30,222 nucleotides of DNA, taken from the NCBI GenBank assembly GCA_036448835.1, contig JAZFXR010000056.1:1-30222 (forward strand), read 5' to 3'. This document shows, one piece after another, positions 19,826-20,980 of this stretch (position 1 is the first letter of the stretch; each line of letters starts with the position of its first letter). The notes beneath the pieces are model-generated. The model saw only the letters and a program-made list of their open reading frames with translations. It searched no databases and was not told the DNA's origin. Origin of the DNA: Dehalococcoidia bacterium (GTDB taxonomy: Bacteria > Chloroflexota > Dehalococcoidia > GIF9 > AB-539-J10). A program made the position numbers and the translations under genes.

Positions 19826-20980
19826 CTAAGGCAGGTGTCTCCTTACTCCTGCCTTAACTTTAAACATCCCGCTACTGGCGAGGTGGCATAAATACGTATT
19901 GAGCATACCTACGTATTCATTTACTTCTGTATGATCGAATTGTATGACTTCATCGGCTATTCGTTGACAATAACTGCAGTTGCTACACCCGGATAGACAA
20001 CTTTGCTTCTTGAAGAAATCTATAAAACCTTCCAGAGCTTGGTTGTCTATATATAGTTTGGGTGGTGATCCAATAACGTCGTTTTTTACACCCGGCAAAT
20101 CAGAATGACCAAATCCAACTTCAGGAGTAATGATATTCAAAATATCGTATAGGTTCCCTTGATAACGACGTGATGAATACGCTTTGGCAGTATTCAAGAT
20201 TCGCTCGGTTGGCATCGCTCTACCACTCGTTTTGAACATATCGATACCTATATCTTCATAAACATGAATATCCTCGGGTCTTACCCAGCGGCATTTAATA
20301 GCCTGCGAGATATCCCACAGTCTGTCTAGAGTACAACGCAGTACACAATAATCTTCATAATATCCATTAAGCGGGTTATAACTTTGACTCGCATGCCCCA
20401 GGGTATCATGGTGGTAATATTCGTAGGGGCACTGGTATAAGCAGAGATTATTAAGTAGCACGGTGACCTCACAATTCACTGAGCTCCTGATAGCTTTAAG
20501 CAAGGTGAAGTCCCGGTTTACATTCATGTCCAGAGTGATAGAATCAGCGCCCAAGGACTCAAATAATTTGGCTCTAGCAACACTGCTCACATGAGCAATG
20601 GTTGACACCCTTACCTCAAGCTGTGGAAACTGACGCTTTATAAGCTCGATCAGATAAGGGATGCTCACTGTAACGCTATCCACGCCAATGCTACTTATCC
20701 ATCTAATTTGCTCTAATAATTCTCGATGAGTATTCTCATCCCACTCCATATTACCCATACTGGGAGCATTTAAGATATAGTCAAACTTCAAGCCCGCGGA
20801 ATGAGCATGTTCGATGTATTCCTCTGCTTGATTTTCTGCCATGTGGATATTATCTGTACCTCTCCCCCCACTACCTATCATTGAGGTGGGCAATACACCA
20901 TATATCTGCACCTCGGCGTCCAGTCTGCTCAGGGGTAATATCAAGTCTGGATCCCAATTCGTTGGTACTAGTAACTTCAT
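19826..20980 (-). CDS. U32 'peptidase' family protein, Cys-rich, probably Fe-S
   Basis: U32-like core (EVRVSTIA, ITLDMNVNRD, EVTVLLNNLC, FKTSGR); CX3CX27CX3C motif and a C-terminal CX3CX2CX2C. Confidence 0.8.
   Translation of the reverse strand: MKLLVPTNWDPDLILPLSRLDAEVQIYGVLPTSMIGSGGRGTDNIHMAENQAEEYIEHAHSAGLKFDYILNAPSMGNMEWDENTHRELLEQIRWISSIGVDSVTVSIPYLIELIKRQFPQLEVRVSTIAHVSSVARAKLFESLGADSITLDMNVNRDFTLLKAIRSSVNCEVTVLLNNLCLYQCPYEYYHHDTLGHASQSYNPLNGYYEDYCVLRCTLDRLWDISQAIKCRWVRPEDIHVYEDIGIDMFKTSGRAMPTERILNTAKAYSSRRYQGNLYDILNIITPEVGFGHSDLPGVKNDVIGSPPKLYIDNQALEGFIDFFKKQSCLSGCSNCSYCQRIADEVIQFDHTEVNEYVGMLNTYLCHLASSGMFKVKAGVRRHLP

Follow-up and report, generated by a model that had tools for sequence, protein, structure and literature searches.

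The gene at positions 19826-20980 (minus strand) of the analysed window, a stretch of Dehalococcoidia DNA of 30,222 nucleotides, encodes a U32-like protein of 384 amino acids that is predicted to carry Fe-S clusters. The explanation that we favour, still tentatively, is that of an Fe-S enzyme of the hydroxylase type which depends on prephenate but not on O2, acts on an acyl or lipid substrate and holds both of its clusters in one chain. The gene is supported by an open reading frame that starts with ATG and has a ribosome-binding site, GAGGTG, 6 nt upstream, a Pfam match, an AlphaFold2 model and 66 orthologous loci. Its fold, conservation, gene neighbourhoods and shared promoter module were observed, while its metal binding, its use of prephenate and its substrate are what we infer.

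The match to the Pfam profile PF01136 scored 46.1 bits (gathering score 22.4) and covered only residues 87-175 of the protein and positions 3-89 of the 233 positions of the profile. Structure prediction, suggested in a preliminary description of this DNA, returned a U32-type TIM barrel with a mean pLDDT of 93.4 (AlphaFold2 model built from 141 homologues). Its closest match was Mk0906 of Methanopyrus kandleri (PDB 5d88), which is, to our knowledge, the sole solved U32 structure: residues 1-261 of the model superposed on it with a Z score of 22.4 and an rmsd of 2.6 Å over 227 residues, the runner-up having a Z score of 12.7, and Foldseek gave an E value of 7e-15. Mk0906 has the same fold (phmmer E 7e-10), but in the alignment it lacks cysteines at the positions of C180 and C184 as well as the C-terminal Cys-rich extension. 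When the C-terminal 124 residues were folded alone, the pLDDT was 51, and high values were obtained only within the full-length model. According to the models, this region would not be an autonomous domain and appears to be packed on the barrel.

U32 proteins have been divided into 12 published subfamilies, PepU32#4 and PepU32#6 among them. Three activities are known for these proteins, namely the hydroxylation of ubiquinone, tRNA and rRNA, and most subfamilies have no assigned function (PMC10990095, PMC11574389). Judged by its sequence, the protein described here belongs to none of the UbiU, UbiV, TrhP and RlhA subfamilies. No NCBIfam model reached its cut-off (the TrhP model NF011996 gave 23.2 bits versus 534), Peptidase_U32_C had no Pfam match in the protein, and DUF3656, a feature of RlhA, had no match at an E value of 0.01 or better. 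The best characterised homologue is TrhP of Escherichia coli (YegQ), the prephenate-dependent tRNA U34 hydroxylase, to which the profile of the branch was aligned by hhalign with a probability of 96% and an E value of 4e-9 over 228 columns; the E values were 0.0027 for UbiU and 0.37 for UbiV. The CX3C and K-x-x-G-R elements align with TrhP, C180-x3-C184 standing opposite CTNAC, which holds the last two cysteines of the CX6CX15CX3C motif of TrhP. The canonical four-cysteine motif CX6CX15CX3/4C (PMC6747719) is nevertheless absent, as only its CX3C half aligns and the CX6C half of TrhP falls opposite a gap. Unlike TrhP, the protein has no Peptidase_U32_C domain and bears an additional C-terminal four-cysteine motif, and the genomic context of its gene consists of lipid genes rather than RNA genes.

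UbiU and UbiV of E. coli are U32 Fe-S proteins that hydroxylate ubiquinone, a lipid substrate, without O2 and with prephenate as the oxygen donor (PMC6747719, PMC10990095). In contrast to this heterodimer, whose genes would be expected as a pair with an SCP2 gene alongside, one U32 gene was found in the source genome (76% complete), its product unites two cysteine groups in one chain, and residue 74 is a serine. The SCP2 genes of the source genome are on another contig: two tandem SCP2 lipid-carrier genes (PF02036) lie at C121:1509-2367, unlinked to the U32 gene, and SCP2 occurred in only 4 of 14 control genomes. RlhA of E. coli (YdcP), the 23S rRNA C2501 hydroxylase, needs extra C-terminal cysteines besides those of the U32 motif (PMC5727448), but differs from the present protein in carrying DUF3656, in its length (653 versus 384 amino acids) and in the spacing of the C-terminal cysteines. 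The preliminary description had proposed a distinct, uncharacterised subfamily, and the partial PF01136 match, the lack of any NCBIfam model above cut-off and the weak hhalign similarity to TrhP, UbiU and UbiV agree with this proposal. Our searches for papers on this U32 branch, including those combining it with Dehalococcoidia, fatty acids, SCP2 or radical SAM, found none.

All of the motifs named in the preliminary description are present in the 384-residue frame at the spacing given there, and their conservation was assessed in 140 full-length representatives with a mean column identity of about 24%. The segment CLYQC (C180-x3-C184, residues 180-184; 20429-20443, minus strand), which contains predicted ligands of the first Fe-S cluster, is separated by 27 residues from CVLRC (C212-x3-C216, residues 212-216; 20333-20347, minus strand). 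C184 and C216 are conserved in 100% of the representatives and C180 in 96%, but C212 is a cysteine in only about 60% of the branch, although in 59 of the 61 orthologues of its own Dehalococcoidia clade. In the stretch HHDTLGH (residues 190-196; 20393-20413, minus strand), which had been described as His-rich, H190 (97%) and H196 (92%) are conserved and may be metal-binding or catalytic residues, but H191 (about 24%) is not conserved. The segment KTSGR (residues 250-254; 20219-20233, minus strand), taken earlier as the counterpart of the usual U32 KIEGR, does lie opposite KIEGR of E. coli TrhP in the profile alignment, with K250 conserved at 98% and R254 at 97%. The C-terminal CX3CX2CX2C motif (CLSGCSNCSYC, residues 328-338; 19967-19999, minus strand), a predicted second Fe-S site, is shared across the branch, with C328, C332, C335 and C338 conserved at 96-99%; in all, seven cysteines are conserved at 96-100%.

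Position 74 (20759-20761, minus strand) is a serine in this protein and a cysteine in 119 of the 140 representatives (85%), and it aligns with C39 of UbiV, the 'far upstream' ligand. Within the 61 orthologues of its own clade, 29 have a cysteine and 32 a serine at this position, scattered among relatives, and C230 is found solely together with S74 (23 of 23 cases). A ligand swap between C74 and C212 was considered but is not supported, as the representatives with neither cysteine numbered 7 against about 8 expected by chance. At the sequence level, the pattern of Cys and His motifs is not due to chance, and two metal sites would fit the two separately conserved groups of cysteines. The first can be read as three fixed cysteines plus an iron that is either open or bound by a variable fourth ligand, and the second, as predicted, as the C-terminal four cysteines. 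The name 'collagenase-like PrtC family protease' in the source annotations suggests a true peptidase or collagenase, which we regard as scarcely credible: we are aware of no mechanism by which U32 proteins would catalyse proteolysis, conservation falls on Cys and His clusters of the kind usual at metal sites, the N-terminus does not resemble a signal peptide and the genomic contexts are biosynthetic.

In the mechanism that we propose, the protein would be a stand-alone TIM-barrel enzyme of a distinct U32 branch, with one Fe-S cluster at the mouth of the barrel held by C180, C184 and C216. The fourth ligand would be variable (Cys74, Cys212 or a histidine), so that one iron may be open to the substrate, and the C-terminal CX3CX2CX2C motif, packed on the barrel, would bind a second cluster. 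The enzyme would work like UbiU/UbiV, TrhP and RlhA, by a two-electron oxidation of the substrate with the electrons leaving via the clusters, and the substrate would receive an oxygen atom from prephenate without O2. This substrate may be a fatty acyl thioester supplied by a linked AMP ligase, or else an acyl-ACP or a lipid that the neighbouring fab/PlsX operon provides. With both clusters on a single polypeptide, the enzyme could do without the two subunits of the UbiU-UbiV arrangement.

The U32 gene of the window lies downstream of a co-oriented fab operon and upstream of rpsL-rpsG-fusA. According to Pfam and NCBIfam matches, the operon (21371-26279, minus strand) encodes a MaoC-type dehydratase pair, PlsX, an acyl carrier protein (ORF with a DSLD motif at 24176-24421, minus strand), FabL, FabF and FabG. 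The dehydratases are a MaoC/HadAB-like hotdog pair (window 25454-26279, minus strand), no FabZ-type gene was seen among the genes as read, and the genes for FabD and FabH-like proteins lie elsewhere in the genome (contigs C123 and C61). Related loci were collected with a 14-sequence alignment as the query, giving 66 orthologous loci, no two of them from the same species. The fab/ACP/PlsX operon adjoins the U32 gene in about 42 of the 66, in two orientations, and a gene for an AMP-binding ligase adjoins it in 39, in 35 of them divergently upstream. In the first layout, fab (+) is followed by U32 (+) and, in most near kin, by rpsL, with the ligase (-) directly downstream of U32 in three loci. 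The second layout, that of more distant kin, is ligase (-), U32 (+), fab (-), and a single inversion cannot interconvert the two.

The ligase orthologue is present in all 12 U32-bearing genera of the family and is absent from five of the eight genera without the U32 gene, these five having neither; genera g116 and g3 have it too, and g127 has distant paralogues of it. As the genomes are related, the synteny and this co-occurrence may stem from a small number of independent events. Its best model was that of a long-chain-fatty-acid-CoA ligase, with 384 bits, which is under the NCBIfam cut-off of 476, and benzoate-type models, including benzoate-CoA ligase, also matched at 263 bits; both the subthreshold score and the benzoate-type matches count against the preferred reading. 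The ligase next to U32 in locus L091 lies at 6743-8233, and the source genome has its copies of the ligase on contigs C62 and C31. A paralogue of the ligase in the source genome adjoins a 3-hydroxyacyl-CoA dehydrogenase gene. The conserved fab and AMP-ligase neighbours favour the earlier suggestion of a small-molecule or acyl-ACP substrate, for which the functional link between the U32 gene and the fab operon is an inference from gene order.

The B12 radical-SAM (DUF4070) gene was considered as a partner in this clade and rejected, as it adjoins the U32 gene in 8 loci only and its distribution among genera does not track that of U32. The other conserved neighbours in loci of the ligase type are housekeeping-like, judged from N-terminal sequences only. 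In five loci (L091:1545-5136 of genome G054, L024, L031, L048 and L051), two to four paralogues resembling DegV (fatty-acid-binding), recognised from sequence patterns alone, stand in a row just past the ligase and B12 radical-SAM genes beside U32.

The same adjacency to the fab, ACP and PlsX genes could point to a non-hydroxylase Fe-S enzyme in the synthesis of fatty acids, for example a dehydrogenase/isomerase of acyl-ACP that yields unsaturated fatty acids independently of O2. FabX of Helicobacter pylori, a TIM-barrel [4Fe-4S] enzyme, is an analogue of such an activity. In our analysis this appeared rather improbable, even with no FabA/FabB-type gene seen in the cluster and with FabK-type barrels among the secondary fold matches. 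The similarity to FabK is of a generic kind, with a TM of about 0.3 and Z scores of about 12 or less, and the protein has no flavin-binding signature. Genome G115 of the same family retains the fab operon but lacks the U32 gene, as do whole genera; the case of G115 also weighs against the hydroxylase that we prefer. Moreover, a non-hydroxylase role would leave unexplained both the promoter module shared with aroH and a methyltransferase fusion, which are described below.

The 390-nt spacer upstream of the U32 gene contains two tandem copies, about 171 nt apart, of a promoter/operator module that is conserved in related genomes. The module reads GGTATTGAC(A/G)AAAAA, then TTCATAAT, then ACATCG-N-AT-Y-R-CGATA, which includes the palindrome ATCGT-N3-ACGAT. 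The proximal copy (21067-21137, minus strand; nhmmer E 5e-16) has the form TTGACA-17-CATAAT followed by the palindrome, and in the distal copy (21238-21308, minus strand; E 1.6e-10) the palindrome is decayed in the source genome. No Rfam or tRNA matches were found in the spacers flanking the U32 gene, and no terminator was predicted. A profile built from 39 copies of the module detected only three copies in the source genome, two before the U32 gene and one on contig C92 (C92:2824-2901, locus L110, plus strand; E 3e-15). The latter stands 136 nt before an operon that encodes the chorismate mutase AroH, DAHP synthase, RibF and TyrRS. Eight other genomes of the genus likewise have a non-U32 copy about 165 nt before aroH and the DAHP synthase gene.

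Among the 119 family genomes searched, the exact core of 15 nt was almost confined to this genus, where it occurs in 32 of 51 genomes, and a reversed-pattern control gave no match in any of the 119. The module was present at 10 of the 30 aroH loci examined in the genus, a share that counts against the preferred reading, and all ten are in U32-bearing genomes. The aroH copy is, hence, restricted to a sub-lineage and could have arisen by duplication of a strong promoter, with no regulation in common. The occurrence of this module before both U32 and aroH is new here.

Prephenate is the product of chorismate mutase. The CM_2 type of this enzyme was not found in the source genome and the AroH type is present, so the availability of prephenate is by itself uninformative. 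Chorismate mutase had been sought as the source of prephenate before the motif was found, so that the one further occurrence of the module, at the operon of this enzyme, amounts to a meaningful though indirect test. Prephenate is the demonstrated oxygen donor of UbiU/V (PMC10990095), and TrhP and RlhA need it as well (PMC10990095, PMC5727448). The shared module gives a concrete candidate regulon, and its presence before U32 and the chorismate mutase and DAHP synthase genes offers independent genomic support for prephenate-dependent chemistry beyond the characterised members of the superfamily. A bolder proposal would add that, by means of a self-contained two-cluster prephenate-dependent oxygenase, strict anaerobes (Dehalococcoidia, Asgard archaea and sulfate reducers) insert oxygen into the chains of fatty acyl groups or other lipids in the absence of O2, and that a dedicated repressor couples its expression to the supply of prephenate. 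We consider this full version speculative and unlikely. If such a lipid oxygenase exists, oxygenated membrane lipids would have a new biosynthetic route, and a U32 enzyme would for the first time act on something other than a ring carbon. A lipid substrate would also explain the oxygenated lipids of some anaerobes and add a biomarker-relevant pathway.

All of the known U32 substrates are aromatic or heteroaromatic and are attacked at sp2 ring carbons, not at alkyl chains (PMC10990095, PMC11574389), which counts against the preferred reading. Accordingly, a prephenate-dependent enzyme hydroxylating a small aromatic molecule was weighed, in which the substrate would be an aryl-CoA from the ligase or a quinone-like or prenylated aromatic compound, and the adjacency to fab would be inherited gene order. 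The benzoate-CoA-ligase matches of the ligase and the promoter module common to U32 and aro genes are in line with it, as are certain more distant gene contexts. A conserved operon of Asgard archaea (L073:196-9401, also in L067-L081) includes two radical-SAM/SPASM genes, B12 radical-SAM genes whose best model is 'lipid biosynthesis B12/radical SAM' (TIGR04072), an ABBA aromatic prenyltransferase gene and an SCP2 gene, and ends with a U32 homologue, whose product has a DUF2621-like tail. The SCP2 gene beside U32 recalls UbiT, and the combination with the prenyltransferase resembles UbiT-UbiU-UbiV. The SCP2 and lipid-type B12 radical-SAM genes of this operon also speak for the lipid substrate that we favour. 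Tandem U32 paralogues are found in L069, L070 and L074. This operon probably makes a prenylated and hydroxylated lipid or cofactor. In the Dehalococcoidia genome G014 (L092, C2:165000-180000), two U32 paralogues flank an unannotated gene of 439 amino acids; the pair directly follows a three-subunit xanthine-dehydrogenase-type Mo enzyme and lies between response-regulator-like genes, the latter identified from N-terminal sequences only.

Against an aromatic substrate, the best models of the ligase are of the fatty-acid type (384 bits), the adjacency to fab has outlasted at least two rearrangements, and no aromatic-catabolic genes were found beside the U32 gene in the loci of this clade. A UbiA-family prenyltransferase (PF01040) had no match in the source genome or in genome G132, which is 96% complete and bears the U32 gene; this also weakens a quinone as the substrate. 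On balance, an aromatic substrate seems unlikely, and we prefer the hydroxylation of an acyl or lipid substrate. Two fusion proteins were found in the wider family. P0178 (41% identity) joins U32 to a SAM methyltransferase, which is as predicted by hydroxylation followed by O-methylation, and P0277 (964 amino acids) joins U32, DUF2621, a B12-binding domain and radical SAM.

An exhaustive HMMER scan, clustered at 50% identity, gave 1732 representative clusters at an E value of 0.001 or better and at least 503 at 1e-30 or better. The branch occurs in Dehalococcoidia, Asgard archaea and other anaerobes, and the nearest relatives outside the clade are from Asgard archaea (45-48% identity). It is, thus, a large branch with a different cluster architecture, which combines three invariant cysteines and a variable fourth with a second four-cysteine site, and its association with lipid genes extends over two domains of life. 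The source genome is a Dehalococcoidia MAG of 873 kb. Within the class, an orthologue was present in 7 of 151 sampled genomes, and within its own GTDB family in 69 of 119 genomes and 12 of 20 genera; genome G014 contains six paralogues of the branch.

The preliminary description had left room for an RNA-modifying role on account of the neighbouring ribosomal operon. An RNA hydroxylase that is a functional analogue of TrhP or RlhA would suit the single U32 gene of the source genome, the position of TrhP as the closest characterised homologue and the rpsL-rpsG-fusA genes downstream. The gene for S12 or S7 lies within four genes downstream of U32 in about 16 of the 66 loci, but rpsL is adjacent in near kin only and the U32 gene has its own predicted promoters. 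The patchy distribution and the six paralogues of G014 argue against a housekeeping RNA-modification role, and the TrhP model and the two domains named above did not match. Consequently, the ribosomal neighbourhood no longer speaks for this role, and we consider an RNA substrate very unlikely.

The source genome has a second lipid-type cluster (C61:1-6097), which comprises FabH-like, KAS and ACP genes, two FAD-type oxidoreductase genes, called from an N-terminal GxGxxG motif only, and an SDR gene. Its KAS is 35% identical to the FabF of the window, and the cluster resembles those that hold lipid-type B12 radical-SAM genes. In the window itself, a tRNA-Met gene lies at 26522-26594 (minus strand), and a compatible-solute gene encoding mannosyl-3-phosphoglycerate synthase (27271-28470, plus strand; PF09488, E 1e-151) is followed by an asparagine-synthase-like gene.
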